DNA of 64,000 bases from Alphaproteobacteria bacterium (GTDB taxonomy: Bacteria; Pseudomonadota; Alphaproteobacteria; SP197). The number at the start of each line of letters is the position of its first letter. Positions within the stretch are counted from its first letter, which is position 1. Where the stretch lies: NCBI GenBank assembly GCA_964291415.2, contig OZ219920.1:128001-192000 (forward strand). Reading direction: 5' to 3'. The position numbers and the translations under genes were made by a program. Under the pieces are notes generated by a model. The model did no database searches and was not told the DNA's origin. It was given only the letters and a program-made list of their open reading frames with translations. Shown piece after piece: positions 9,550 through 38,419 of this stretch.

Positions 9550-12500
9550 TCAGAACGGCACGGTGAGGCGCACCCCGACGGCGCCCCCGGCATCGCCGGA
9601 GCCCGATCCGTTCATCGAGGTCTCCGCCGCCAGCGAGAGGCCGTCGTGGCGCCAGACGCCCGACAGCGCCAGACGCAGCTCCGTTGCGCGCGCCTGCGAG
9701 ATCAGCCTGGTCCCGGAAACGTCCGTGAAGGTCGCCGAGCCGTCGAGCGCATGAACAAGGTCGACGGAGCCCTCGAGAGACAACCTCCCTGTCTCCGCCC
9801 GGGCCGTCATCCCGACGCCGCCCGTGACCCGCTCCAGGTCGGGAACCGAGACCCGGGATCCCACGGCATCGGCAAAGTCGTCCACAACGAGCGCCGAACG
9901 CTTGACCCACAGGCGCGGCACAACCTCCAGGCCGCCGTCCAGCGCCACCTCGCGGCCGGCCTCGAGGCGCACCAGCGAACCATGTGCCGCGACGCCACCC
10001 ACCAGCGCACCCACGGCCGGATCGTCCGAGCCGGCGGCAATGTCGTAGCGCGTCATCGCCAGGCCCGCCTTGGCGTAGAAGCCGTCCGGGTTCCGCCATG
10101 CGCCATCGACGGCAAGCCCGATCGCCCCGATGCCGATCCTTCCGCCGCCGGTCCCGGCGTTCACGCCGACCGTGCTCCAGGCGCGGTGAAAGGCAAACGA
10201 CGCACCCAGCGTCTCGCCCAGTTCCATGGTCCACCCGGACTGCAGGACGCGATAGCCGAAGCCGTGGCTCTGCCCGACGGTCGAGCCCGCGGGGCTGAAG
10301 GCGCTGCTCGCTTCGTGGGACCGCGCGAAGGAGAAGCTGCCTTGCCGGGCAGGAGCCCCCGTCTCCAGCCCCGCGTCGTTCAGGGCGATGAGGGCGGAAG
10401 GCAGGGCCTCGTAGACGGCGGCGCGCGGGGCGTACTCCTCCACAAAGGGGGAGGCCTGCGCCTGCTGTCCGGCGAATGGCAGGGAGACAATGCTGTCGAA
10501 CGCGATCGCCACCGCGCCTTCCACCACCTCCGTGAGCTTCGCCGCATCAACGGCCGGGGGATCCGGCTCCGGAGGTGGCGGTGGCGCGGTGGCGGTGGCG
10601 GTGGCGCCGGTGGCGGTGGCGGCGACGTCCTGATCCTTCTTTCCGTGAAGTCCACGGCAGAGAAGTCCCGGTCGGCGATGACGCCTTCGGCCGGTTCACT
10701 CGCCGTCCACATCGCAGGGTCCGGGTCGGTGTAGTCCGTTACATTGACTCCTTCCGCTCGCATCCGGACGTTCCAGGCGCCGTTGCGGGCTGTCTCCCCG
10801 GTGACGCCCGTCGCCCCGTCGTGCAGCACGACGCCGTTCATCGCGATGGTGGTTTCGCCGCCGTCGTTGATAATCCAGCCGTCCCCGATCGCCTGCGACA
10901 CGCGCCGGCCGTCCAGGTTCAGCTCCACGTGCAGTTTCGGCGGGACGGCCGGGATGGCCGGGACAACATTGCCGGGTTCGGAACTGTCCTCCGGCACCTC
11001 CGGCACGGTGCCCGTGGCCAGGATCGCGATCCCCGATTCTGAATGAATGCTGCCCCGGGGACCGATCACCACCTTGCCGCCGTTTGCGAGGTAGATGCCT
11101 TCACCCTGACTGGAGATGCTGTCGTTCACCGTCACCGTCTGCTGGCGGTAGCCGTCCGCGTCCAAGGCGGCCATCCGCGCCGGAACTCCACTGCTGACAG
11201 CACCTACGCGTACGCCCTGGGCGCCGGCGCCGTTCACCGTGATCGGGCCGCCGAGAGTGATGGTCATCATCCGCGTCGCAGCAGTCCCCCAGTGATAGGC
11301 GACGACGCCATGAGAGTTCTTCCCTTCCGTCGTGATGGAGGAGCCTTGCTGCATGTCGATGACGATGTTGCCGACCTTCTCGTGATAGGCAGCAATGCCG
11401 TAGGCGTAGGTGCCTGGCAGACTGGGGTGAATCGCCGTGCCGGTCGTCGCGATGTCGAAGTTCCGGGTGGTGATCCGGATATCGCCGGCGCCGACGGCAT
11501 TCTCAAGGGTCGACGCATAACTGTGTCTCGCCCAGATGCCGTGGGCAAGGTAACCTTTCGGCGTGGTGGTGCCGTCCCCATTGTCAAAGACGCTGCCTGT
11601 CGTGACGCTTCCGTTCTTGGCGTCGATGGTGATTCCACCATCACCGCCGTCGCCTTGATGAAGTCCAGCAATGCCGGCTGCGGCATCGCCTTCAGTGGTG
11701 ATCGTGCTGCCGTCAACATCGATCGAGGTCTCGCCTCGCCCGGTTTCCCGTGAAACATGGAGGCCGCGAACACCATCACCCTTTGTCGTGACGACAATCC
11801 CTTCCCCTTGCAAAACAAGGGCGACGTCGTTGGCCACGGCGTCCGTATCAGTGTTTTCGTGTGTCAGGCCGACGCCAGTTGCGTGCGATATGATGGTGAC
11901 GCCCGAATTCAGGGTTGCCGTGAGCGTGCCACTGCTCGTCGCCGAGAGCCGGCCTTCAACTCCACTACCTCGTTCACCGCTCGCGTTGATTTGGACATCT
12001 TCCAGCGTGATGGCAATATCGCCGCCCGTCTTGCCCGTCGCGGGGTCCTGATAGGCAAATACGCCATCGGAGTGCAGGCTGGTCGTCGTGATGGTCGAGA
12101 GCGTTGTCGTCGCCTCTGTTGTTTTGCCTTCGATGGTGATGTCGATGTTGCCGTCACCGACATGCACAACATCCACTCCGTTAGAATCTGAGTTGTCTGA
12201 TCCCGACGTCGATATGCTGACACCCCTTGCATCGATATCCACATCGCCAGTGCCGGTGTGTTCAACATGGATACCTCTCGCCGGTCCTGTCACCCCACCG
12301 GTTGTCGTGATCTCGATGTTCTCCAGATCGATACCCAGATAGCCGGTGCCGCTATGCTCGCCGGCAACGCCATGTCCCAAGGCACCCGTCGTCGATATGG
12401 TTCTCCCTGTCGCGGCTCCCTTGATGGTGATGTCGACGTTGCCGGTGCCGGTATGTACACCAGACACCCCATGTGCTGTGACACCGGCTGTCGTGATTCC

Positions 12501-12888
12501 AACACCCGTGACATCGATATCCACATAGCCGGTGCCGGTGTGCTTGCCGAGGATACCGTCCGCCTGGGAGCCCGTCGTCGATATGGTGTTCTTCGTTGAG
12601 GTGCCGATGACATCGATACCGACTTCCACGGGTGTGGCGGCGGTTCCACCGGCATGTTCTCCCCACACTCCCCGACCATCCCTCGTTGCTGGGGTGTATG
12701 GTGTCGATCACCACGCCATCCAAATCTATTTCGATGTCTACGGTCGACGTGGTATCAGCCGTGATGCATACGACGTTTTGCCCATCGATGGGCGTGTTGC
12801 TGCACACCGGTGCAATAGTCTCTTGTGCATGGGCCACGCGCAGAAGGCCAAGCAAAAGGACAAGACAGAAGACTGTGCCGTGACGCAT
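9550..12888 (-). pseudogene. Autotransporter (signal peptide, beta-helical passenger, Pro linker, beta-barrel ending in Phe), interrupted by two frameshifts
   Basis: Three consecutive ORF pieces (12888 to about 12700, about 12700 to 10587, and 10587 to 9550) join into one protein of about 1110 aa. Indels lie near 12690-12710 and at about 10587. Confidence 0.8.
10574..10624 (-). repeat. (CCACCG)n poly-proline tandem repeat in the autotransporter linker
   Basis: Plus strand reads ggtggcggtggcgcggtggcggtggcggtggcgccggtggcggtggcggcg. Confidence 0.85.
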
Positions 12889-14503: not shown

Positions 14504-15180
14504 TTACGCTGGAGGCCTGGAGACATCGATGACACGGATCGAAATCTTGAGCCGTTCACGGGCAGTCAGCGTATCGCGCAGCTGAGTCGCGAACTCGGCC
14601 GCGCTTTTGGGCGGCGACCCAAAGCCTGGCGTTGGCCGGCAATGTTCATAGTTCCCGAACCAGAAGACAACATAGATGCCGCGACCGTCAGCACCGGCAT
14701 CCACGGTATAGCGGGCGACCAGCTGCCTCTTCATGGAGTTCCAAAGGTCGCGATGGCAACTTCATCTTGACTTCTACGGGAACAGTGAAGGTATCAAGAC
14801 AAACGTCAATGTCCGCGCGTTGGTCATGGTCGTATCGGACCTCGGCCTTTACGGCAGCACCGAATGGCGCCATGCGACGCAGCGATCATACAGCAGGTCA
14901 TCGCGGCAGGCGTGCTCCGGCTCCGGCTCGAGTGGTCGATTGTGCGCGTCCACATTCCAGTACTTCCGCCAGTCGGGAGAATGACCGTCGCGTACGTCCC
15001 TGGATCTGTCTGACGGCAGTTCGGCTGTCAGCGCTGCGGATCCTCCGAGTTCGCGAGACAGCGGTTTTCGATCACGTCGATCACCTGCCCGATTGGGCAG
15101 TAGCGAAAGTCTGCTTCTCTGTAAGCGATGCCGTCGGGAGGGGCGTCCACTCTACCGCATACGAACCATAGGCTGAAAAC
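14504..15180 (-). pseudogene. Frameshifted C-terminal remnant of a large ATP-binding (STAND/NACHT-type) protein with a PD-(D/E)XK-like tail
   Basis: Pieces across frames: SDWRKYWNVD..RP..PE..CRD.LL, QRADIDV..VPVEVK, QLVARYT.D.GADGRGIYVVFWFG and KISIRVIDV. Confidence 0.6.
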
Positions 15181-15521
15181 CGCTGCCCAGGGAGCCGGAT
15201 TGGTGCATTGGAGGACATGGCCGCATTCGGCACACATTCCACGTCGACGACCGGTGCACGGTTGGCCTGGGCGTGTGCGGCCAGATGGCGCGCTTGCCGG
15301 ATCTGGCGTGCCTTCGTACCGGTCATCGGGACCTTCGGGCAGGCAGCGACCTCCAGGCTCGTTCTCCCGGAACGCGGCGGCAGTTCGCCACCGCCGTCAA
15401 GTCTCTGTGGGTGACACTCTTGCGCATTTGCTCCGGCGCACGAAGCGGGCCTCGTCCGTCGGACGGGACCCATGGCGCCTGAACCGGACCGGGAAAATCT
15501 GCGCCACGCGCGTGGATGCCG

Positions 15522-16310
15522 TCAGGCGGCCTCCGTGTCCACCGCATCGACGATATGGGCGAGGACGTCCTGCTTGGTCGCCGTGCCGCGGTCCAGGGTG
15601 GCGACAGCGCGACCGGAGCGCATCACCATGATCCGGTCGGCAATCCTGAAGACGTGATCGAGATTGTGGCTGATGACAATGAGCGCGATTCCCTGTTGCT
15701 TGAGGTTCTGCATCAGCATGAGGGTGTTGCGCGTCTCTTCGGCGCCCAGCGCCGCTGTCGGCTCGTCCATGACGAGGATCTTGAGATCGGTGGCATAGAT
15801 CGCCCGGGCGATCGCCACTGCCTGACGCTGACCACCGGACAAATGATGGGTGGCGACGTGAATGTCCTCCAGTTCGATGCCCACCTGCTCCTTGAGGACG
15901 CGAGCCGCTTCCGTGGCCATGCGGGTGTTGTCGAGAAAGGTGAGACCGAGAAACCGGCGCTTGAGTTCGTGGCCCAGAAACACGTTGCCCGCGGCATCGA
16001 GGCTGTCGACCAGGCCGAGGTCCTGGTAGACGGCCTCGATTCCAATTTGCCGCGATTGCCTCTTGTTCGTGATCGAAACCGGCCGCCCTTCCATTCGGAT
16101 TTCGCCCTCGTCGAGCTCATGGACTCCGGTCAGGACCTTGATGAGGGTCGACTTCCCGGCGCCATTGTCGCCGACAATTGCGAGCGCCTCGCCTGCATTC
16201 AGATGCAGACTGACGTCGGCAACTGCCATGACACCGCCGAAATGCTTCGAAATCGAGTGCATTTCCAGCAGGGGCGAGTCACTCCGAACGGAAGGAGAAG
16301 GCTGGTTCAT
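15522..16310 (-). CDS. Sugar-type ABC transporter ATP-binding protein (single NBD)
   Basis: Walker A GDNGAGKST, signature LSGGQRQ, Walker B ILVMDEPT. Confidence 0.93.
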   Translation of the reverse strand: MNQPSPSVRSDSPLLEMHSISKHFGGVMAVADVSLHLNAGEALAIVGDNGAGKSTLIKVLTGVHELDEGEIRMEGRPVSITNKRQSRQIGIEAVYQDLGLVDSLDAAGNVFLGHELKRRFLGLTFLDNTRMATEAARVLKEQVGIELEDIHVATHHLSGGQRQAVAIARAIYATDLKILVMDEPTAALGAEETRNTLMLMQNLKQQGIALIVISHNLDHVFRIADRIMVMRSGRAVATLDRGTATKQDVLAHIVDAVDTEAA

Positions 16311-16323
16311 CGATCAGAACGCC

Positions 16324-17466
16324 TCAGCGCTCCAGGGTGCCGATACCCGTGTACCGGAACGCTTCGCGCTCCATCGCGTCCACGACGTCGGCTCCCGTCT
16401 CGCCGCTGACGATGGTGATCCGGCCGAGAATGACCAGCGGGATGTCGTCGGTACGACCTTCCACATGGGCACGCACGACCTCCGCGGTTGCGACGCCCAC
16501 ATCGTCGCTCATCCGCATCGGCGTCGCCCAGAGTTCACCGTGGCGCAGCGCCTCGAGCTCGTCGCCCGTGCCGCCCCACGCCGTCACCTTGACGTCACTG
16601 CCGGCCTCCTGCACCGCGGAGATCGAGCCCATCGCCATGGCGGTGTTGGCATTGTGAATGAGTTCGACTTCCGGATAGGCCTGCAGGATCTGCTGCGTGC
16701 CGGTATAGCCGCGCTCACGCTCGAAATTGCCATAGTGCTCGTAAGCGACTTCCCAGTTGCTCTGGCTGGTGACGCACTCCTTGAACCCGCCCGAACGCTG
16801 ATCGTCGATCGCACCGGGAATGCCGCGCACCAGTGCCATCGTGCCCTCGGTGCCAAGATTCTCGAGGACATAGTCACACATGATCAGGGCGCCGGCGAGA
16901 TGCGAGAAGCTCAGGTATGCCAGCGGCTGCGTGCTGCCCCAGTCCTGCGGCACCACCGTAAAGTTCCAGACGATCACCTCGGTGTCCGGCTTGTCGATGA
17001 GCCGCTTGATGTTGTCCTGCTGGACTCGCAGTTCGGTCGGGCCGAAGACGACGTAATCGAAGTCCTCCTGCTCGACCTGATCCGTGTAGGTCGCCTGGAT
17101 CACGTGATCGCCGACATCCGAGGCATACTGCGTGTCAACGGCGGGAAGGCCGATCTCCTCGAGGCGTTTCATCATCGCCTGATAGTTGCGCAGCCAGAAG
17201 TCCGACACATCCTGGCTCGGATAGATGAAGGCGATCTTGACCGGTTCGGTCGGAGGATTCGCCATCGCCTCGCCGGACTCGCCGACGATGGCCTGGAATG
17301 CTGCCAGATTGTCCGCGTCGGTGACTTCGTAGTACTCCCAGTAACCTTCCTCACCGGAACCCTCGAGATCGGCCAGCGCCGGGATCTCGCGTGCCTCGGT
17401 GGCAACGGTGAAGCCGGCGCATAGAGCCAGCCCCGCAACGCTTGCGAGAAGGGTTTTCGATTGCAT
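16324..17466 (-). CDS. LuxP-like periplasmic binding protein (candidate borated AI-2 receptor) of an ABC importer
   Basis: Signal peptide, then GYWEY, YPSQDVSDFWLRN, WNFT, QPLAY.SF.H..G, DQRS, ANTA, AWGG..EL, MRMSDD.G.A.AE and terminal AFRY. These follow Vibrio LuxP in order (LuxP sequence recalled from memory). Confidence 0.8.
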   Translation of the reverse strand: MQSKTLLASVAGLALCAGFTVATEAREIPALADLEGSGEEGYWEYYEVTDADNLAAFQAIVGESGEAMANPPTEPVKIAFIYPSQDVSDFWLRNYQAMMKRLEEIGLPAVDTQYASDVGDHVIQATYTDQVEQEDFDYVVFGPTELRVQQDNIKRLIDKPDTEVIVWNFTVVPQDWGSTQPLAYLSFSHLAGALIMCDYVLENLGTEGTMALVRGIPGAIDDQRSGGFKECVTSQSNWEVAYEHYGNFERERGYTGTQQILQAYPEVELIHNANTAMAMGSISAVQEAGSDVKVTAWGGTGDELEALRHGELWATPMRMSDDVGVATAEVVRAHVEGRTDDIPLVILGRITIVSGETGADVVDAMEREAFRYTGIGTLER

Positions 17467-17517
17467 GATGTTCCTCTCTTTCAATGCACAGTGTCGTGTT
17501 GGTTGAAAATGCAGCGG

Positions 17518-18558
17518 TCACGAGCGCCCGCCGCGTGCGCGTCTGAACAGTCCTGAAAGGCCTCCCCTGCCCGAATCCTGCAGGGCTGCATAGAAGGCGA
17601 CGGACGATATGATGATCAGGCCCGCCGCAACCTGCTGCCAGAAGAAGTCAAGCCGCAACATCACCAGCGCGTTGACCACCATGGAGAGCAGCAGAACACC
17701 GACCAGCGTGCCCGTCATGGACCCGCGGCCGCCGAACAGCGACGTTCCACCGACGACAACGGCAGCGATCGTGTGAAGGGTCAATCCCATGCCGGCCGTG
17801 GCCTGAATCGCGTTGAGACGGCCTGTGAGCAGGATACCCGCCAGACCGGCAAGACCGCCCAGCAGCATGTACTGGTAGATCTTGTGCCGGTGGACATCGA
17901 TTCCCGTGAGGACCGCGGCTTCGGTGTTGCCGCCGATGGCCACGGCGTAGCGGCCCAGAGGAGTGTACCGGTAGAGAACAAAGCCGACAGCGATCGCGAC
18001 CACCCCGATAACGGCAGCGATCGGTATCATCTCGAAGACGCGTCCCCGTCCGATCCAGGTCAGCGGGTCGGGAAATCTCGACAGCACGACGCCAGCGGCA
18101 AGGACAAGCGCGAACCCGCGGAAGACAAGATCGGTTGACAGCGTCGCAATCAGATCGGGCACCCGCAACTTGGTGACGACGAAGCCGTTCACCAGGCCAC
18201 AGGCGATCCCGACCAGGATGGCCACAGCCATGCCGAGGAAGACGTTGAGTCCGGCGTCCTTGATCAGCATGGCCATGATGACCGCAGAGAGCGCCGCAAT
18301 CGAGCCGACAGACAGATCGATTCCACGGCCGGTGATGACCAGCGTCATGCCCATGGCCAGGACCATGAAGATGGATGCGTCCTGCAGGATGATCATCAGG
18401 TTCTGCAGGCGGAAGAAGCGCGGATCGGCAAAGGCCATGACCAGACAAAGCGCCATGATCATGACCAGTGGGCCAAGTATGTTGACGGAACGCTCTGCCC
18501 ACGGAATCTCGCGTCGCCGAGATCCTGTCGCCGGCGAACTCTCCGGAAGGCTGACCAT
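17518..18558 (-). CDS. Sugar-type ABC transporter permease (RbsC family)
   Basis: GIDLSVGS, IATL, AIGGNTEAA and IAAVVVGGTSLFGGRG motifs. Confidence 0.93.
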   Translation of the reverse strand: MVSLPESSPATGSRRREIPWAERSVNILGPLVMIMALCLVMAFADPRFFRLQNLMIILQDASIFMVLAMGMTLVITGRGIDLSVGSIAALSAVIMAMLIKDAGLNVFLGMAVAILVGIACGLVNGFVVTKLRVPDLIATLSTDLVFRGFALVLAAGVVLSRFPDPLTWIGRGRVFEMIPIAAVIGVVAIAVGFVLYRYTPLGRYAVAIGGNTEAAVLTGIDVHRHKIYQYMLLGGLAGLAGILLTGRLNAIQATAGMGLTLHTIAAVVVGGTSLFGGRGSMTGTLVGVLLLSMVVNALVMLRLDFFWQQVAAGLIIISSVAFYAALQDSGRGGLSGLFRRARGGRS

Positions 18559-18757
18559 TCCGTACCTGTCTTGCCGAGAACAACTGGTCCCTGATGCTTT
18601 CACCGGCATTCCTGCAAGTCAAGGACATGCGACGGTGGGGCAGAAGGGACGCTGCCTGCCGGAGAGAACCCTGCGACGTCTCGGGAGTCCCCGTGTTGAA
18701 ACAAGCGCCCCGGAACGCCATGTTACGGGTGTTTTCAGGACATGAATCTCCCCGACC

Positions 18758-19486
18758 ATGGACAGCAGAGCGCAGGAGGAGGTGCCAGACCCGCAAGGGG
18801 GCGTTGCCGCGCGACTGTTCGGGGTGCTTTCGCAGTTCATCGCATCCGAATTCCTGTCGTTCGGAGGCGGTACGGTCCTGGCTGCCCGGTGGCGCCACCG
18901 TCGTTCTCTGGACGTGGACCTGTTCTGCGAACCGCACGCCTACGACGGCCTGGGGCCGGTTGGCCGGGAGCGCCTGGAGGCCGCGATCAAGACGATACCG
19001 GGTTGCGCGGAGGAACCTACCTGGTGCGATTCCATTGCGACCTATGCCGAGATCGATGGTCTCGAGGCCACCCTGTTGCCCAGGACCACGGTGATCGTGT
19101 CTGCCCGACCGACCAGACTGGCCGGGACCCGACTTGCACTGCAGTCCAGTGCCCAGATCCTGTATGCCAAGATTTCGAGAAGGATGTATGCCGGAGGCGA
19201 GATAGCCGCGCGCGACGCCTACGATCTCGCTTGCGCCAGACGGTTCGATCTTTCGGCGCTTCAGCGTGCCCTGGGCAATGTCGATCCCCGGGAGATCCAT
19301 GTAGTCCGGGAGATTATCCGGACGATTCCAGAGGGACGATTGATCGATGACGGAGTCAAGCCGGTCATTGAGCCGTGTTTTGAGTGGACCGGAGAGGCGT
19401 TGAAGGAAGCCGTGCTCGAGGCGCTCGGTGTTCCGCCTACCCCACGAGACATGCCGCCTCCGGAAGACAAGGGTCCAGGGCCATGA
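18758..19486 (+). CDS. Nucleotidyltransferase, AbiEii/AbiGii toxin-like
   Basis: FGGGTVLAARWRHRRSLDVDLF plus K...RDAYDL. Start uncertain. Confidence 0.75.
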   Translation: MDSRAQEEVPDPQGGVAARLFGVLSQFIASEFLSFGGGTVLAARWRHRRSLDVDLFCEPHAYDGLGPVGRERLEAAIKTIPGCAEEPTWCDSIATYAEIDGLEATLLPRTTVIVSARPTRLAGTRLALQSSAQILYAKISRRMYAGGEIAARDAYDLACARRFDLSALQRALGNVDPREIHVVREIIRTIPEGRLIDDGVKPVIEPCFEWTGEALKEAVLEALGVPPTPRDMPPPEDKGPGP

Positions 19487-33632: not shown

Positions 33633-36038
33633 ATGCAGTTCGCCATAGGCCAGCCCAACCCGAGAACCGAGGATCCTCGCCTTGTGCGGGGCGGCGGACG
33701 CTATGCCGATGACGTCAACCTCGACGGTCAGCTGTGGGGAGCGGTGCTCCGTTCGCCCCATGCCCATGCCGCCATTGCCGGCATCGACTGCAGTGAGGCC
33801 CGTGCCGGGCATGGTGTGCGCCTTGTTCTCACCAACGACGACCTTGAGGCCGAGGGAATTGGCTCACTGCCGTTCACCAGCGCCATTGCCAACCGGGATG
33901 GATCTCCGATCGCAGACATTCCACATCCGGTTCTGGCGACCGGCAGGGTCCGGCATGTTGGCGAACCGGTGGTCTTCGTGGTGGCGGAATCGCGCGAGGC
34001 GGCACGTGATGCATGCGAAGCGGTCCATGTCGACTACCATCCGCTCGATGCCGTGACCGGCACCGCCGGGGCACTTGCAGACGATGCTCCGCAACTGTGG
34101 GAGGAAGCGCCGGGCAACGTGGTGCTTGACTGGGACGTCGGTGACGCCGCGGCGGTCCGCAACGCCTTCGCCGCGGCCGACCGCGTGGTGGAACTCGAGG
34201 TGGTCAACAACCGCGTGGTCGTGGCACCCCTCGAGCCGCGTGCCGCGGTCGGTGACTACGAACCCGGGAGCGGCCGCTTCACCCTCCATGCCTGCTCCCA
34301 GGGCGCCCACAAGCTCGCGGCCCCCCTGGCCAGGGACGTTCTCAAGGTGCCGGGAGACCGTCTTCGCGTGCTGACCGGAGATGTGGGCGGCGCCTTCGGC
34401 ATGAAGAACTTCCTTTTTCACGAGTATGTCCTCGTGCTGGTTGCGGCACGGCGCCTTGAGCGCCCGGTCAAGTGGACGGCGGATCGCAGCGAGAGCTTTG
34501 TCAGCGACCTGCAGGGCCGCGACCGCGTCATGAAGGGGCGAATGGCCTTCGACAGTGCCTGCCGGATCGTCGCCCTCGAGGTCGATGTCATCGCCAATTT
34601 CGGCGCCTACGTTTCGCAGTTCATGCCCTTCGTGGCGACCCTTGCCGCCACCGCCATCCAGTCCATGGCCTACAGGATTCCGGCCATTCACACCCGGGTG
34701 CGCGGGGTGATGACCAACACCGTGCCGATCGATGCCTACCGTGGGGCGGGGCGCCCGGAAACCGGGTTCATGGTCGAGCGTCTGCTCGACCTCGCGGCAC
34801 GCCGGTTCGGACTGTCCGGGAGCGCCATACGCCGCCTCAATCACGTGCGCCAGGAGGACTTTCCCTGGGACACCGGTGTCGGCGTCGTCTACGACTGTGG
34901 CGATTTCGGACGCCATCTTGACCGGGCGCTCGAGCTTGCCGATGTCGCCGGTTTCCCGGCGCGCCGCGAGGAGTCAGGCCGCCGGGGCGTGTTGCGCGGT
35001 CTTGGTGTCACGGGCGTCTTCGACCGTTGCGGCGGCATGGGGCCGGACATGGTGGACCTCGATATCGACAGCGAGGGACATGTCCTGGCCAGGGTCGGGA
35101 CGCAGACGAACGGGCAGGGTCACGAGACGGCCTATACGCAGATCATCGCCGACAGGCTCAAGGTCGACCCCTCGCGCATTCGCATTCTCCAGGGTGACAA
35201 CGAACTGGTGCCCTTCGGTTCGGGCAATGGCGGTTCCAACTTCATCGCCATAGCCGGCAGCGCCTGTCTCATCGCTGTCGGGCACGCCATCGACAAGGGG
35301 CGGCGCATCACGGCGCATCTCCTGGAGACGGCCGCCGACGACATTGTCTTCGAGGACGGCATCTTTCGCATAGACGGCACCGACCGCACGCTGACCTTCG
35401 AGGAGGTGGCGGCGGCGGCCGGTGACCCGGACCGCCTGGCGCAAGGGGAGGAACCGGGCTGGCGGGTGAGCGGAACCTACAAGCCTCCGGACGGGCCGGC
35501 CTTTCCCAACGGCACCCACATCTGCGAACTCGAGGTCGACCCCGAAACCGGGGTGACGGACCTCCAGCGCTACATCGCGGTGGACGATGCCGGAGTCGTC
35601 ATCAATCCCCTTCTGGTTGACGGTCAGGTGCACGGTGGCGTGGTTCAGGGTATTGGCCAGGCCCTGGCCGAGGAGGCACACTATGATCCCGGCTCGGGAC
35701 AGCTGCTCACAGGCTCCTTCCTCGACTACCAGCTTCCCAGGGCAAGCGATCTCGTCATGATCGAGACCGACCGCATCGAGGTGCCGACGGCACGCAATCT
35801 CCTCGGCGTCAAGGGTATCGGCGAAACCGGGGCGATCGGCAGTCCTCCAGCCGTCATCAACGCGCTGGTGGATGCGCTGGCTCCCCTCGGCATCGATCAC
35901 ATCGACATGCCTGCAACACCGCTCAAGGTGTGGAGCGCAATTCAGTCTGCAACGGCATCATCCCACCAGAAACACTCCACCGTTCTCTCTCACTTGCGGC
36001 CCCATCTACACCATGTTGGACGACAACCCGGGCGCTAG
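33633..36038 (+). CDS. Xanthine dehydrogenase family molybdopterin-binding subunit (form II CoxL-like)
   Basis: RSPHAHA, DVGGAFG, AYRGAGR, GQGHET, GQVHGG and KGIGE motifs. Confidence 0.92.
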   Translation: MQFAIGQPNPRTEDPRLVRGGGRYADDVNLDGQLWGAVLRSPHAHAAIAGIDCSEARAGHGVRLVLTNDDLEAEGIGSLPFTSAIANRDGSPIADIPHPVLATGRVRHVGEPVVFVVAESREAARDACEAVHVDYHPLDAVTGTAGALADDAPQLWEEAPGNVVLDWDVGDAAAVRNAFAAADRVVELEVVNNRVVVAPLEPRAAVGDYEPGSGRFTLHACSQGAHKLAAPLARDVLKVPGDRLRVLTGDVGGAFGMKNFLFHEYVLVLVAARRLERPVKWTADRSESFVSDLQGRDRVMKGRMAFDSACRIVALEVDVIANFGAYVSQFMPFVATLAATAIQSMAYRIPAIHTRVRGVMTNTVPIDAYRGAGRPETGFMVERLLDLAARRFGLSGSAIRRLNHVRQEDFPWDTGVGVVYDCGDFGRHLDRALELADVAGFPARREESGRRGVLRGLGVTGVFDRCGGMGPDMVDLDIDSEGHVLARVGTQTNGQGHETAYTQIIADRLKVDPSRIRILQGDNELVPFGSGNGGSNFIAIAGSACLIAVGHAIDKGRRITAHLLETAADDIVFEDGIFRIDGTDRTLTFEEVAAAAGDPDRLAQGEEPGWRVSGTYKPPDGPAFPNGTHICELEVDPETGVTDLQRYIAVDDAGVVINPLLVDGQVHGGVVQGIGQALAEEAHYDPGSGQLLTGSFLDYQLPRASDLVMIETDRIEVPTARNLLGVKGIGETGAIGSPPAVINALVDALAPLGIDHIDMPATPLKVWSAIQSATASSHQKHSTVLSHLRPHLHHVGRQPGR

Positions 36039-36498
36039 GCGCATCGCCACAACATGCCAATGATGGAATCGTGCTCCACGGACATCCCTCTCGTTGCTCG
36101 AAAGCACCCGGAGTACCCTTTTCCTGGCGCTTGTTCGGATGGGTGCGTCCATTGTCGCTACCTTCCTGACCACCTCTCTATCGAGTTCGGCTGCCTTGCG
36201 CCCGTGATTTCGTTCGTTCATGCATCCCGGCCATCCTCAGGTCCGAATGTCCGCAATCGCTGCCTTGAGATCCCGCGTAAACTCCCTGACGAAACGGCAC
36301 TTTGGCAAGATGGTGCTGGTCCCTATCACGATCTCCAAAACGACATTGGGAACAAAGGGCTCCACCACCAGATCGCCTGCCACCTCTCGTTGGAAGACGA
36401 TGGGGAACTGAGCTGTCAAATGTCTCGGCCTGGGGTCTCATCGGCGCGTGCGGATCCCAGCACAATGCCCCCTCATTCCAGTCAGCAAGGAGAAAAAC

Positions 36499-37126
36499 GT
36501 GTCTCAGTTTCGACCGAAGTACAAAACATTCGACTGCTATGGGACCCTTGCAAAATTCCGGATGAGAACCGTTGCACGGGACGGGTACCAATTCAACAAG
36601 GACTTCGGAGTCCATCGATTTGATGTGGTGCCTGGAGACTGGAAACCCTATCAGAACGCAATCAAGAACGCCGTTCGTCGAACCTGCGAAAAATGGGGAA
36701 TGGAATACGTCGATTCCGAGGCTCAGGTTTACTATGACAAGGTGCCTGACCGGGACCTCATCGCGACGTTTCTGATCCGTTTGCTCGAGTGGCCGGGCAT
36801 TGTCCGCTGGTGGTCCCGTCCAAGGCTTCAGACAACCAGATTGAGATAAGCTCGGCGCGCCCTTCCATGCGGCTCGCACGGCCGAACAAGCACGGGCCTA
36901 CAAGCCGCGTTACAGAGCATTCAAATACATGTTCGACCAATTGGGATGCGGGGAGGGGAACGTCTTGCATGTATCGGCAAGCCTTCGATACGATCTTGTC
37001 TCTGCCTACGGTCTCGCTATCAAGAACAAGGTCGATGTCCATCGCGGCTATGAGCCGACGGCACCGGGATGCGAGTATCATGATGTATCCGGCATTGGCG
37101 TCTTGTCGGGAATTCCCGGGCTGTAG
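36499..37126 (+). pseudogene. Haloacid dehalogenase type II, frameshifted and internally deleted
   Basis: FRPKY.TFDCYGTL in one frame; AEQARAYKP...YMFDQLGC...LHVSASLRYDL in another. Confidence 0.8.
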
Positions 37127-37141
37127 TCGAGTGCAGGCTCC

Positions 37142-38419
37142 ATGAAACTCAAGCCCTATTGGTTGGATACGGCCCCGGCGTTCAGGTCCTGCGTTGCTGG
37201 CCCTCCTCCCGAACGGTGTGATGTGGTCGTGATCGGTGGAGGGTTCACTGGCCTGTCGGCAGCCTTGGCGTTGGCAAGGAAGGGCGTCGACATCGTAGTG
37301 CTTGAAGCGAAGGGGGTTGTGTCGGCGGCTTCGGGACGGAATGGCGGACATTGCAACAACGGGCTCATCAAGCCGATTGGCACGATTGCGTCGCAACATG
37401 GAGAGGAAGTCGCCAAGACTCTGTACCGCGCTTTCGATGCTGCTGTTGACACCGTTGAGCGCCTGGTCGATGAGGAGGCAATCGACTGCGACTTTCGACG
37501 CAGTGGCAAGATTCTGTTGGCGGCCAAACCATCCCACTTTGATAGACTTAAGAAAAACTCCGAGCACCTGATGAGAGGTCTCGATACAGATACCGAGCTG
37601 GTGTCGCCCGCAGATCTTGGATTTGAAGTAGTCTCCTCGAAGTTCCATGGCGGTCTTCTGTTCCACCGGAGTGCGAAGTTGCATGTTGGTCGTTTCGGTA
37701 TCGGTCTTGCGGAAGCGGCTGCCGGCCACGGCGCCAGGATTTTCGAGAACACACCCGTTTCAAACATCAAGCGGGTTGGCACAACCAACATTGCGGTTGA
37801 AACGGCTTGCGGGACAATTCAGACCGAGAATGTGTTCGTGGCCACCGGGGCGGATACCGCAGCGCCATTTGACTACTTGCGTCGACGGATCGTGCCGATC
37901 GGGAGCTTTGTCATTGCTACGGAACAACTGTCGAAAGAGCAGCTCGACACGGTCATGCCGACCCGGAGAACGGCCGTTACCTCAAGACACATTGGAAACT
38001 ACTTCCGCGTATCGCCGGACAATCGGCTGATTTTCGGCGGGCGTGCGCAGTTCGCACTTTCAAGCCCAAAAGCCGACGCCGAGAGTGGTCAAATCCTGGC
38101 ACGCGCGATGACGGAGATCTTTCCCCAACTGTCGGACGTCCAGATTGATTACTGTTGGGGGGGATTGCTGGATGTCACGATGGACCGCCTGCCGCGGGCT
38201 GGCAAGAACGGTGGATTGTACTACTCCCTTGGATACAGCGGCCATGGCGTGCAAATGTCCGTGCACATGGGGCGGATCATGGCCGATGTCATGACGGGCG
38301 GCCCTGATACAAACCCATTATCCGACCTGCCGTGGCAAGCGGTGCCTGGCTACTCCGGGATGCCATGGTTCCTTCCGATTGTCGGAATGTACTACAGACT
38401 GCTCGACAGATTCTCGTGA
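37142..38419 (+). CDS. FAD-dependent oxidoreductase (PuuB/OrdL-like)
   Basis: PYWLDTA, GGGFTG, ASGRNGG and GYSGHGV motifs. Confidence 0.9.
   Translation: MKLKPYWLDTAPAFRSCVAGPPPERCDVVVIGGGFTGLSAALALARKGVDIVVLEAKGVVSAASGRNGGHCNNGLIKPIGTIASQHGEEVAKTLYRAFDAAVDTVERLVDEEAIDCDFRRSGKILLAAKPSHFDRLKKNSEHLMRGLDTDTELVSPADLGFEVVSSKFHGGLLFHRSAKLHVGRFGIGLAEAAAGHGARIFENTPVSNIKRVGTTNIAVETACGTIQTENVFVATGADTAAPFDYLRRRIVPIGSFVIATEQLSKEQLDTVMPTRRTAVTSRHIGNYFRVSPDNRLIFGGRAQFALSSPKADAESGQILARAMTEIFPQLSDVQIDYCWGGLLDVTMDRLPRAGKNGGLYYSLGYSGHGVQMSVHMGRIMADVMTGGPDTNPLSDLPWQAVPGYSGMPWFLPIVGMYYRLLDRFS

Follow-up and report, generated by a model that had tools for sequence, protein, structure and literature searches.

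The subject of this report is a three-gene locus on the minus strand of a 64,000-nucleotide stretch of DNA (Alphaproteobacteria bacterium, assembly GCA_964291415.2, contig OZ219920.1, positions 128,001 to 192,000), hereafter the window, which encodes an ATP-binding cassette (ABC) importer whose periplasmic solute-binding protein (SBP) belongs with LuxP, the autoinducer-2 (AI-2) receptor of Vibrio harveyi. At least three families of ABC pump are found here to capture their ligand with a LuxP-like protein, and one of these families replaces the AI-2 importer LsrACDB in lsr-like operons, including that of a cultured strain. These operons support, by analogy, the import of AI-2 by LuxP-type pumps as a class, and AI-2 is also our single best guess, a tentative one, at the ligand of the window copy.

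The likeness to LuxP is apparent in sequence, fold and binding site. When the SBP was compared with all PDB sequences using phmmer, the best matches were four V. harveyi LuxP sequences (E 5.8e-43 to 1.2e-42), with query residues 47–379 aligned to residues 4–340 of the LuxP chain, including an N-terminal extension that is absent from ribose-binding protein. The next match was RbsB, at E 5.4e-16 and over the C-terminal half only, and there was no match to the LsrB model. A plain ribose importer was rejected on this comparison (E 5e-16 for RbsB against 6e-43 for LuxP). An AlphaFold2 (AF2) model built from 36 homologues has a mean predicted local distance difference test (pLDDT) score of 86.5, and a Foldseek search of the PDB with this model gave LuxP chains as all of the top eight matches (E ~1e-29), the best being apo LuxP 1ZHH (target-normalised TM 0.88, E 2e-29), followed by ribose-binding proteins at ~1e-20. 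Identity between the SBP and LuxP is ~30%. The SBP is a LuxP-superclade protein and no ribose binder. The original prediction, made by eye from the sequence, had named LuxP as the closest relative, expected it to rank above RbsB and listed a set of shared motifs, and each of these points has held: GYWeY, YPsQdVSDfWlRN, NfT, QPlaYlsFsHlaG, DdqR, WGGtgdEL, MRMsDDvGvAtAE and AFRY all fall within the HMMER alignment to LuxP.

Seven of the eight LuxP residues that contact AI-2 are kept in the SBP (Ser79 as Ser94, Trp82 as Trp97, Asn159 as Asn174, Arg215 as Arg230, Thr266 as Thr281, Trp289 as Trp303 and Arg310 as Arg324), and the sole change is Gln77 to Asp92, in agreement with the assignment first made by eye. 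The published LuxP numbering is presumably the chain index plus 23, with which all eight named residues land on the right letters, and Trp289 is a residue that we take to be an AI-2 contact. Ser79, Trp82, Asn159, Arg215, Thr266 and Arg310 are among seven published hydrogen-bond partners of AI-2 in 1JX6 (PMC9687752), and another source gives Gln77 and Trp82 as hydrogen-bonding the C4 hydroxyl of the borated ligand, S-THMF-borate (bioRxiv 10.64898/2026.01.16.699917). Because Gln77 holds this sugar hydroxyl, its replacement by Asp lies on the sugar side of the site and not on the borate side; as far as the alignment can be trusted, Asp92 can act as the same hydrogen-bond acceptor. All 36 aligned members of the window's clade share Asp92, Ser94, Trp97, Arg230, Thr281, Trp303 and Arg324, and Asn174 is present in 27, with Ala in eight (a Roseibium/Ruegeria subclade) and Thr in one. 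Seven further polar positions are equally invariant (Asp227, Gln229, Glu249, His250, His277, Asn278 and Asn280; 36/36), at which LuxP has Ser, Ala/Met, Ser, Phe/Tyr, Tyr, Ala and Ala/Ser. The SBP thus resembles V. harveyi LuxP (1JX6, 1ZHH, 2HJ9, 4YP9) in homology over its full length, in fold and in seven of eight contacts, and differs from it in these seven positions, in having Asp in place of Gln77 and in lying between the genes of an ABC permease and an ATPase, whereas LuxP has a luxQ partner.

The three genes are co-directional open reading frames (ORFs) in the order permease, SBP, ATPase, with gaps of ~34–51 nt and 13 nt, as the original prediction had described them, and Pfam confirms the nature of all three products. 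Together they encode a minimal ribose-type (CUT2) ABC importer that depends on a binding protein and consists of one permease, one single-domain ATPase and one secreted SBP. A PF13407 SBP, a PF02653 permease and an ABC ATPase encoded together place the trio in CUT2, although the two fused nucleotide-binding domains typical of that family (RbsA, XylG, LsrA) are not present. The ATPase, in which a Walker A motif (GDNGAGKST), a signature motif (LSGGQ) and a Walker B motif (ILVMDE) are visible, matches only positions ~1–240 of double-domain models that are 490–513 positions long, so covering just the N-terminal half of the XylG, YtfR and RbsA models (for example residues 13–254 against 4–240 of 513). 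The permease is a single gene whose product would presumably work as a homodimer. The FrcABC fructose system of Sinorhizobium, which we take to be a CUT2 importer with a single-domain ATPase, has the same three-gene architecture (PF13407, PF02653, PF00005), from which the window system differs in its LuxP-superclade SBP.

None of the trio reaches a curated NCBIfam cut-off. The top match of the permease is the ribose permease RbsC (206 bits, cut-off 398), ahead of LsrC (173 bits, cut-off 388) and LsrD (92 bits, cut-off 500), and the ATPase scores 143.5 bits against the LsrA model (cut-off 586). With these scores and no LsrB match, identity with the canonical Lsr system was rejected. Lsr belongs to the same importer family but has an LsrB-type SBP, two permeases (LsrC and LsrD) and a double-domain LsrA, where the window has a LuxP-like SBP, one permease and a single-domain ATPase.

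The trio recurs well beyond the window. A word-indexed search gave 809 homologues of the SBP among 8000 scored candidates, and an exhaustive search over representatives at 50% identity gave 1653 matches at E<=1e-3, 56 of them at <=1e-30; the Joint Genome Institute (JGI) name 'autoinducer 2-binding protein LuxP' is carried by 10 of the 120 homologues listed. For the gene context we used the best 80 of 310 stretches encoding an SBP relative on contigs from one genome per species, where genes were called with a crude ORF picker based on third-position G+C (GC3) that missed or merged some genes, so that presence and absence rest on tblastn. The carriers include Geminicoccaceae, Paracoccaceae/Roseobacteraceae (Ruegeria, Tateyamaria), Stappiaceae (Roseibium/Labrenzia), Devosiaceae (Devosia) and Phyllobacteriaceae (Chelativorans), as well as Granulosicoccus, Immundisolibacterales and Trueperaceae. 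A permease homologue adjoins the SBP gene in 80/80 of these loci and a single-domain ATPase of the same size in 79/80, the remaining locus being a cut 2.1-kb contig; the order is permease–SBP–ATPase in 20 loci and ATPase–permease–SBP in 60. The trio is a conserved unit, which bears out the proposal that a LuxP-type receptor here serves an ABC importer in place of LuxQ. A scan of metagenome contigs with one protein gave no matches, and the same scan with an alignment of more distant members gave 11 loci (34–41% identical to the window SBP) with D/E/N-SWNRTWR signatures at the eight contact positions; a homologous permease and/or single-domain ATPase adjoins the SBP in ten of these, the eleventh being a 1.75-kb contig. 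The SBP family is nonetheless rare: it was found in only two of the 400 other genomes sampled from the class, and in neither of two genomes of the same genus. Two Geminicoccaceae loci carry tandem SBP genes between permease and ATPase (L017 7001–9389 and L029 7001–9377), the copies being 67 and 63% and 80 and 62% identical to the window SBP, respectively.

No LuxQ-type sensor domain was found in the 80 related loci. In the window, local tblastn gave no match to a LuxQ sensor domain or histidine kinase and none to lsrK or lsrR, as the original prediction had stated. It had also proposed looking for luxQ, luxS and lsrK in the genome (100% complete, 8.99% contamination, 4.44 Mb), where neither LuxS (PF02664) nor the LuxQ periplasmic domain (PF09308, a model that matches 10 of 401 other genomes of the phylum) was found and no LsrK exceeded its cut-off.

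The place of the SBP among its relatives was examined with quick maximum-likelihood trees, for which the support values are SH-aLRT only, with no bootstrap. Of the 60 sequences in a midpoint-rooted tree, 48 form a LuxP superclade, which includes both LuxP and the window SBP and is set apart from 12 ordinary sugar binders with a support of 100. The superclade comprises four lineages whose branching order is not settled by the quick tree: an ABC-linked clade with Glu in place of Gln77 (E-type, 99), an ABC-linked group around P0124/P0125 (84), the window's own ABC-linked clade with Asp at this position (D-type, 99) and the LuxQ-linked clade (100), which has a long stem of 1.02. The window SBP lies outside the LuxQ-linked clade, in a separate clade with a support of 99–100. 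In the LuxQ-linked systems a LuxP-like gene stands beside a PF09308 gene in 10 of 12 loci examined, and all eight canonical full-length luxQ-adjacent LuxP proteins in the tree read QSWNRTWR; the luxQ neighbour L097 is divergent. With transport proteins making up three of the four lineages as well as the outgroup, the economical reading is that the LuxP sensor may have arisen from a transporter. A transport ancestry of LuxP had been suggested before this analysis, and it fits a tree in which three ABC-linked clades and other transport SBPs surround one LuxQ-linked clade.

The contact signature is informative only in part. Among 82 full-length representatives, 34 read QSWNRTWR, seven read D/E-SWNRTWR and 40 are without the LuxP core; of these 40, both Arg residues are kept in 29, and Asp with both Arg in 22. 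As the Arg pair and the Asp are common outside the LuxP core, they are background for this branch of PF13407, and what appears from these alignments to be specific to LuxP and the window clade is the shared Ser-Trp...Asn...Thr-Trp core.

Vibrio-like genomes that bear luxPQ (G103, G355, G155) also encode a second superclade paralogue, which reads DSWARTWR, is 42–44% identical to the window SBP and has no ABC genes nearby. In one of them (L148, G103:C2 1279256–1284024) this gene lies next to, and divergent from, genes for a HAMP-GGDEF-EAL membrane protein and a further PF13407 protein, an arrangement suggestive of a pair for sensing linked to cyclic di-GMP.

An indication of function comes from the E-type sister clade, whose SBPs are 34–37% identical to the window SBP and read E-SWNRTWR, with the qualification that the Asn159 column of this clade hangs on the placement of a two-residue gap (Asn in three alignments, Val in one). 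On the metagenome contig L133 (1430–11265) a divergon is built around the E-type trio. One strand encodes a short-chain dehydrogenase/reductase (SDR), lsrF (NF006081, 512.8 bits, cut-off 297) and an LsrR-like regulator (239.8 bits, below the cut-off of 486), and the other the permease, SBP and ATPase followed by an RbsD-like protein, an unnamed 255-aa protein, lsrK (NF008187, 879.9 bits, cut-off 528) and a cupin. A comparable operon is found, by RefSeq annotation, on plasmid pRA01 of the cultured Roseicitreum antarcticum ZS2-28 (L160, NZ_CP061502.1 162966–172862), whose SBP is 64–67% identical to that of L133. Here lsrK and the gene of a hypothetical protein share one strand; next come genes for a sugar-binding transcriptional regulator, permease, SBP and ATPase, and after these RbsD/FucU, a 106-aa antibiotic-biosynthesis-monooxygenase (ABM) protein that is LsrG-like, and a class II aldolase. 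LsrG belongs to the monooxygenase fold family, and a homologue of the ABM protein (53%) is encoded before the permease in a further locus, L127. In operons whose other genes include lsrK, lsrF and those of an LsrR-like regulator and an LsrG-like ABM protein, relatives of the window pump thus stand in for LsrACDB; the association is seen in L133 and pRA01 and partly, as lsrF and an lsrR-like gene, in the Trueperaceae contig G808:C258 described below.

The pockets of the two clades appear closely alike. Over 17 positions (the eight contacts and nine that distinguish the clades) the window reads DSWNRTWR+DRDQEHHNN, L133 ESWNRTWR+DRDQEYHAN and Vibrio LuxP QSWNRTWR+DRSASFYAA, so that the window agrees with L133 at 14 positions and with LuxP at nine. 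By this measure the ABC-linked SBPs are more like each other than either is like LuxP.

By the established mechanism of the class, the SBP would capture its ligand in the periplasm, close on it and dock on the permease dimer, and ATP hydrolysis by the ATPase dimer would then drive the ligand into the cell. We infer that this ligand would be a small methyl-bearing pentofuranose of the kind made from by-products of S-adenosylmethionine (SAM). Because the sister clade, whose pocket is nearly the same, is found in operons that also carry lsrK, lsrF and an lsrG-like gene, AI-2 (tetrahydroxy-methyl-tetrahydrofuran derived from 4,5-dihydroxy-2,3-pentanedione, DPD), taken up for scavenging or signal removal, is the candidate that we would tentatively put first for the window SBP. 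The original prediction of an AI-2 importer thus has support for LuxP-type pumps as a class, given a sister trio with lsrK, lsrF, an lsrR-like gene and an LsrG-like ABM gene, and is left in doubt for the window's own clade, where neighbourhoods and co-occurrence point equally to salvage by mtnK and mtnA.

Several observations weigh against AI-2 as the window ligand. The pocket comparison consists of alignments only, and since P0207, a generic SBP representative, comes very close to the signature with DSWNRSWR, the signature alone is no proof. Two E-type loci, L124 and L127, whose SBPs are 75–77% identical to that of L133, continue with aldo-keto-reductase-like and amidohydrolase-like genes (76–77 and 134–162 bits, far under the cut-offs), and lsrK is not on the stretch seen. 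Within the D-type clade, LsrK exceeds its cut-off in none of 70 genomes and LsrF is present in only three of 39, all Trueperaceae, and the neighbourhoods and co-occurrence of the clade itself favour mtnK and mtnA. In the window genome the best LsrK score is 190 bits against a cut-off of 528, and tblastn found no LsrF, Dak1/2, LsrG-like ABM protein, class II aldolase or RbsD-like protein; with LsrK, LsrF, Dak and LsrG-like proteins all missing, this genome has no known route for imported AI-2.

A somewhat improbable alternative is that the pump imports 5-methylthio-D-ribose (MTR) and/or 5-deoxy-D-ribose. These furanose by-products of SAM use are excreted by many bacteria and would feed MtnK and MtnA and then methionine salvage or a shunt of the dihydroxyacetone phosphate (DHAP) type; the pocket would see a 5-substituted ribofuranose, its likeness to the AI-2 site reflecting a similar ligand shape. 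Five loci from three distant lineages have both mtnK (455 bits, cut-off 275) and mtnA (418 bits, cut-off 279) no more than 7 kb from the transporter (L022 from Chelativorans, L025, L030 and L034 from Paracoccaceae, and L040 from Trueperaceae), on the same strand and contiguous in four. MtnK exceeds its cut-off in 30 of 38 genomes with the window's Asn159-bearing subclade, in seven of 32 with the subclade in which Asn159 is replaced by Ala and in 21 of the 401 genomes sampled from the class, with the window's among them, a contrast that is overstated since many of these genomes are kin. The window genome has mtnK and mtnA and none of the other context enzymes; its mtnK, however, is on another contig, where its neighbours (a hydrolase, a GMC oxidoreductase and a CUT1 ABC system) have no link to the operon, and its mtnA is ~560 kb away. 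An uncharacterised MTR transporter, MtrACB, a ribose-like ABC trio beside mtnK and mtnA that was likened to other sugar transporters, has been predicted earlier (PMC3228920), and the window's subclade holds that position in the five loci, though not in the window. In other Alphaproteobacteria, mtnK stands beside other ribose-type ABC genes in five of 14 loci and beside a distant PF13407 SBP in five of 14, these SBPs being ~26% identical to that of the window over partial matches; such loci agree with the earlier MTR transporter prediction. Import of MTR or 5-deoxyribose is less easily reconciled with the clade-specific pocket positions, which are polar (Asp, Gln, Glu, His, His, Asn, Asn) and give no sign of a hydrophobic adaptation to a methylthio group, an argument from sequence, or with the near-identical sister pocket, which is accompanied by lsrK and not by mtnK in the two loci with enough flank seen. 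A search for known RNAs and riboswitches, the SAM riboswitch among them, gave nothing at the gathering score upstream of the operon in the window or in nine related loci.

One locus of the window's subclade brings AI-2 and 5-deoxyribose together. On the Trueperaceae contig G808:C258 (L159, 2200–18800) genes for a SorC regulator, MtnK, MtnA, a bifunctional aldolase/SDR, the ATPase, permease and SBP, and Dak1 and Dak2 are followed by those for a dehydrogenase, E1 beta, a RuBisCO-like protein, an LsrR-like regulator (48% identical to that of R. antarcticum) and lsrF (377.8 bits, cut-off 297). The cluster can be read either as AI-2 processing with Dak replacing LsrK or as 5-deoxyribose catabolism ending at LsrF, in which 5-deoxyribose could pass via 1-deoxyxylulose 5-phosphate to the LsrF substrate. 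In either case it may encode an undescribed route that ends at LsrF.

We consider it unlikely that the substrate is a different small sugar, neutral or acidic, with the LuxP-like signature an inherited pocket architecture of little bearing on the ligand. The candidates would be a tetrose or tetrulose (erythrulose), a deoxy-pentulose (1-deoxyxylulose), L-xylosone or a pentonate. Dak-type kinases act on dihydroxyacetone, glyceraldehyde and erythrulose, and in the window's subclade a two-subunit kinase of this type (Dak1 388 bits, Dak2 134 bits) is encoded directly after the SBP in seven loci. Genes for xylose-isomerase-like TIM-barrel proteins, beta-hydroxyacid dehydrogenases, SorC regulators and FGGY kinases recur nearby, along with E1 alpha/beta, bifunctional aldolase/SDR and RuBisCO-like genes, the last of which was not found in the window genome. 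The pattern of Asp and both Arg, common as it is in the PF13407 branch outside the LuxP core (22/40), would suit such a ligand, and LuxP itself accepts other borated furanoses, to judge from the PDB titles 4YR7 and 4YP9 and, for L-xylosone, from bioRxiv 10.64898/2026.01.16.699917. Against this, the neighbourhoods are heterogeneous and none of them is present in the window, and the SWNRTWR core is unchanged across clades that are 27–37% identical, which argues for one conserved type of ligand and not for drift.

Import of another sugar draws further support from the Asn159-to-Ala subclade, which sits among LacI regulators, other sugar ABC systems and genes for a lactonase, a PdxA-like protein, an enolase-superfamily dehydratase, a dihydrodipicolinate synthase (DHDPS)-like protein and an aldehyde dehydrogenase, and which may bind something else. 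A system of this subclade is carried on the megaplasmid of Ruegeria pomeroyi DSS-3 (L161, NC_006569.1 267120–288112), flanked by a second ribose-type ABC system, two LacI regulators, a tripartite ATP-independent periplasmic (TRAP) system and a set of PdxA-like, rhamnonate-dehydratase-like, DHDPS-like and aldehyde dehydrogenase genes; this megaplasmid is a tractable model for the subclade.

Whether the ligand is AI-2 or another furanose, that it is borated seems to us rather doubtful. All residues of the LuxP borate clamp are kept and the named carriers are marine or soda-lake organisms, but in the ABC-linked clades there are additional conserved acidic residues (Asp/Glu77, Asp227, Glu249), and the Arg pair has no diagnostic value; the argument that two Arg residues prove borate was rejected, as 29 of 40 representatives without the LuxP core keep both. 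The fuller proposal, that the SBP binds S-THMF-borate or another furanosyl borate intact through a LuxP-like Ser/Asn/Thr/Arg/Arg clamp and that the pump imports the adduct, is improbable. If true, it would make this the first dedicated organoborate importer and a marine and soda-lake counterpart of Lsr that removes AI-2 and brings in boron, and the type of transporter from which the LuxP sensor arose by loss of the pump and gain of LuxQ.

That the SBP is mainly a sensor, with its membrane partner encoded elsewhere and the ABC genes secondary, has a precedent in LuxP as a pure sensor partner and in the Vibrio-like DSWARTWR paralogue of the same clade type, which lacks ABC genes and in G103 stands beside a HAMP-GGDEF-EAL protein, yet it is very hard to credit when permease and ATPase accompany the SBP in 79/80 loci and at least one of them is adjacent in 10/11 distant loci, and LuxPQ-type sensing was rejected since PF09308 is absent from the genome and no sensor domain occurs in the window or the 80 loci.

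The features of the importer locus are collected in Table 1. The SBP most likely starts at Met7 (17466), which gives a protein of 380 aa; the database copy P0001 begins at this residue, has the same length and is 100% identical. The signal peptide was called by eye, and pLDDT in the AF2 model is <50 for residues 1–29.

Table 1. Features of the importer locus in the window
Feature	Position	Strand	Remarks
ABC permease	17518-18609	(-)	Longest ORF 363 aa, start codon uncertain; PF02653 BPD_transp_2, 129 bits
Periplasmic SBP, LuxP superclade, signature D-SWNRTWR	16324-17484	(-)	ORF 386 aa; PF13407 Peripla_BP_4, 86 bits
Predicted Sec signal peptide of SBP, MQSKTLLASVAGLALCAGFTVATEA	17392-17466	(-)	Judged by eye from the translation; first 25 residues from Met7
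ABC ATPase, single nucleotide-binding domain	15522-16310	(-)	262 aa; one PF00005 ABC_tran domain, 106 bits

The surroundings of the operon in the window contain no regulator, kinase or catabolic gene and give no clue to the substrate: on one side are an AbiEii-like fragment and genes for a DNA-alkylation-repair protein, an S15-type hydrolase and a family-5 SBP, and on the other an autotransporter gene. A promoter and terminator scan of 14800–19300 was uninformative, with no promoter-like site and a single terminator-like site, which falls within the SBP gene but on the wrong strand. Immediately upstream of the operon, an ORF (18758–19486, plus strand) matches the AbiEii nucleotidyltransferase toxin profile with residues 20–80 (profile positions 3–59 of 238, 32.6 bits) and may, from this partial match, be the remnant of a toxin–antitoxin module. 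Together with the patchy distribution of the operon, the remnant hints that the operon was gained by transfer. Elsewhere in the window, the minus strand at 9550–12668 encodes a large protein of repetitive, Gly/Thr-rich sequence that includes a proline run (762-aa ORF), and an ORF whose product has an autotransporter beta-domain (PF03797, 47 bits) overlaps it in a different frame. G+C falls to 0.564 at 36001–38000 against 0.62–0.69 in the rest of the window.

The two genomes of the same genus that lack the SBP (G432, G593) are 2.8 Mb in size and also lack mtnK, and metagenome-assembled genomes (MAGs) with 94–98% identical copies of the SBP and the same flanking genes measure 3.9–4.8 Mb. The genus label of the window assembly (G000) may be ill-fitting for this contig.

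In the literature, LuxP is described as confined to the Vibrionales, with a few homologues in Oceanospirillales beside PAS regulators, and AI-2 import is ascribed to Lsr/LsrB-type systems (PMC524169, PMC2561040, PMC3386761). A 2025 survey counts 267 'LuxP' proteins in RefSeq, only three of them with a test of AI-2 binding, and refers to transport in loose terms (PMC12268683). Our search of the literature, whose scope left subscription papers and supplements outside, turned up neither a LuxP-type ABC importer nor an lsr operon that is based on such a pump.

LuxP has until now been treated as a sensor of the Vibrio type only. At the level of the family the result is unexpected, and cultured strains allow a direct test of it. 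If confirmed, it would reveal a second, marine route of AI-2 internalisation, and one that, were borate also bound, would be the first organoborate importer. It would serve as a warning that proteins automatically named 'LuxP' in ocean metagenomes are pump subunits and not LuxPQ sensors, which bears on censuses such as that of PMC12268683. It would also give a concrete picture of how a transport protein was turned into a quorum-sensing receptor.

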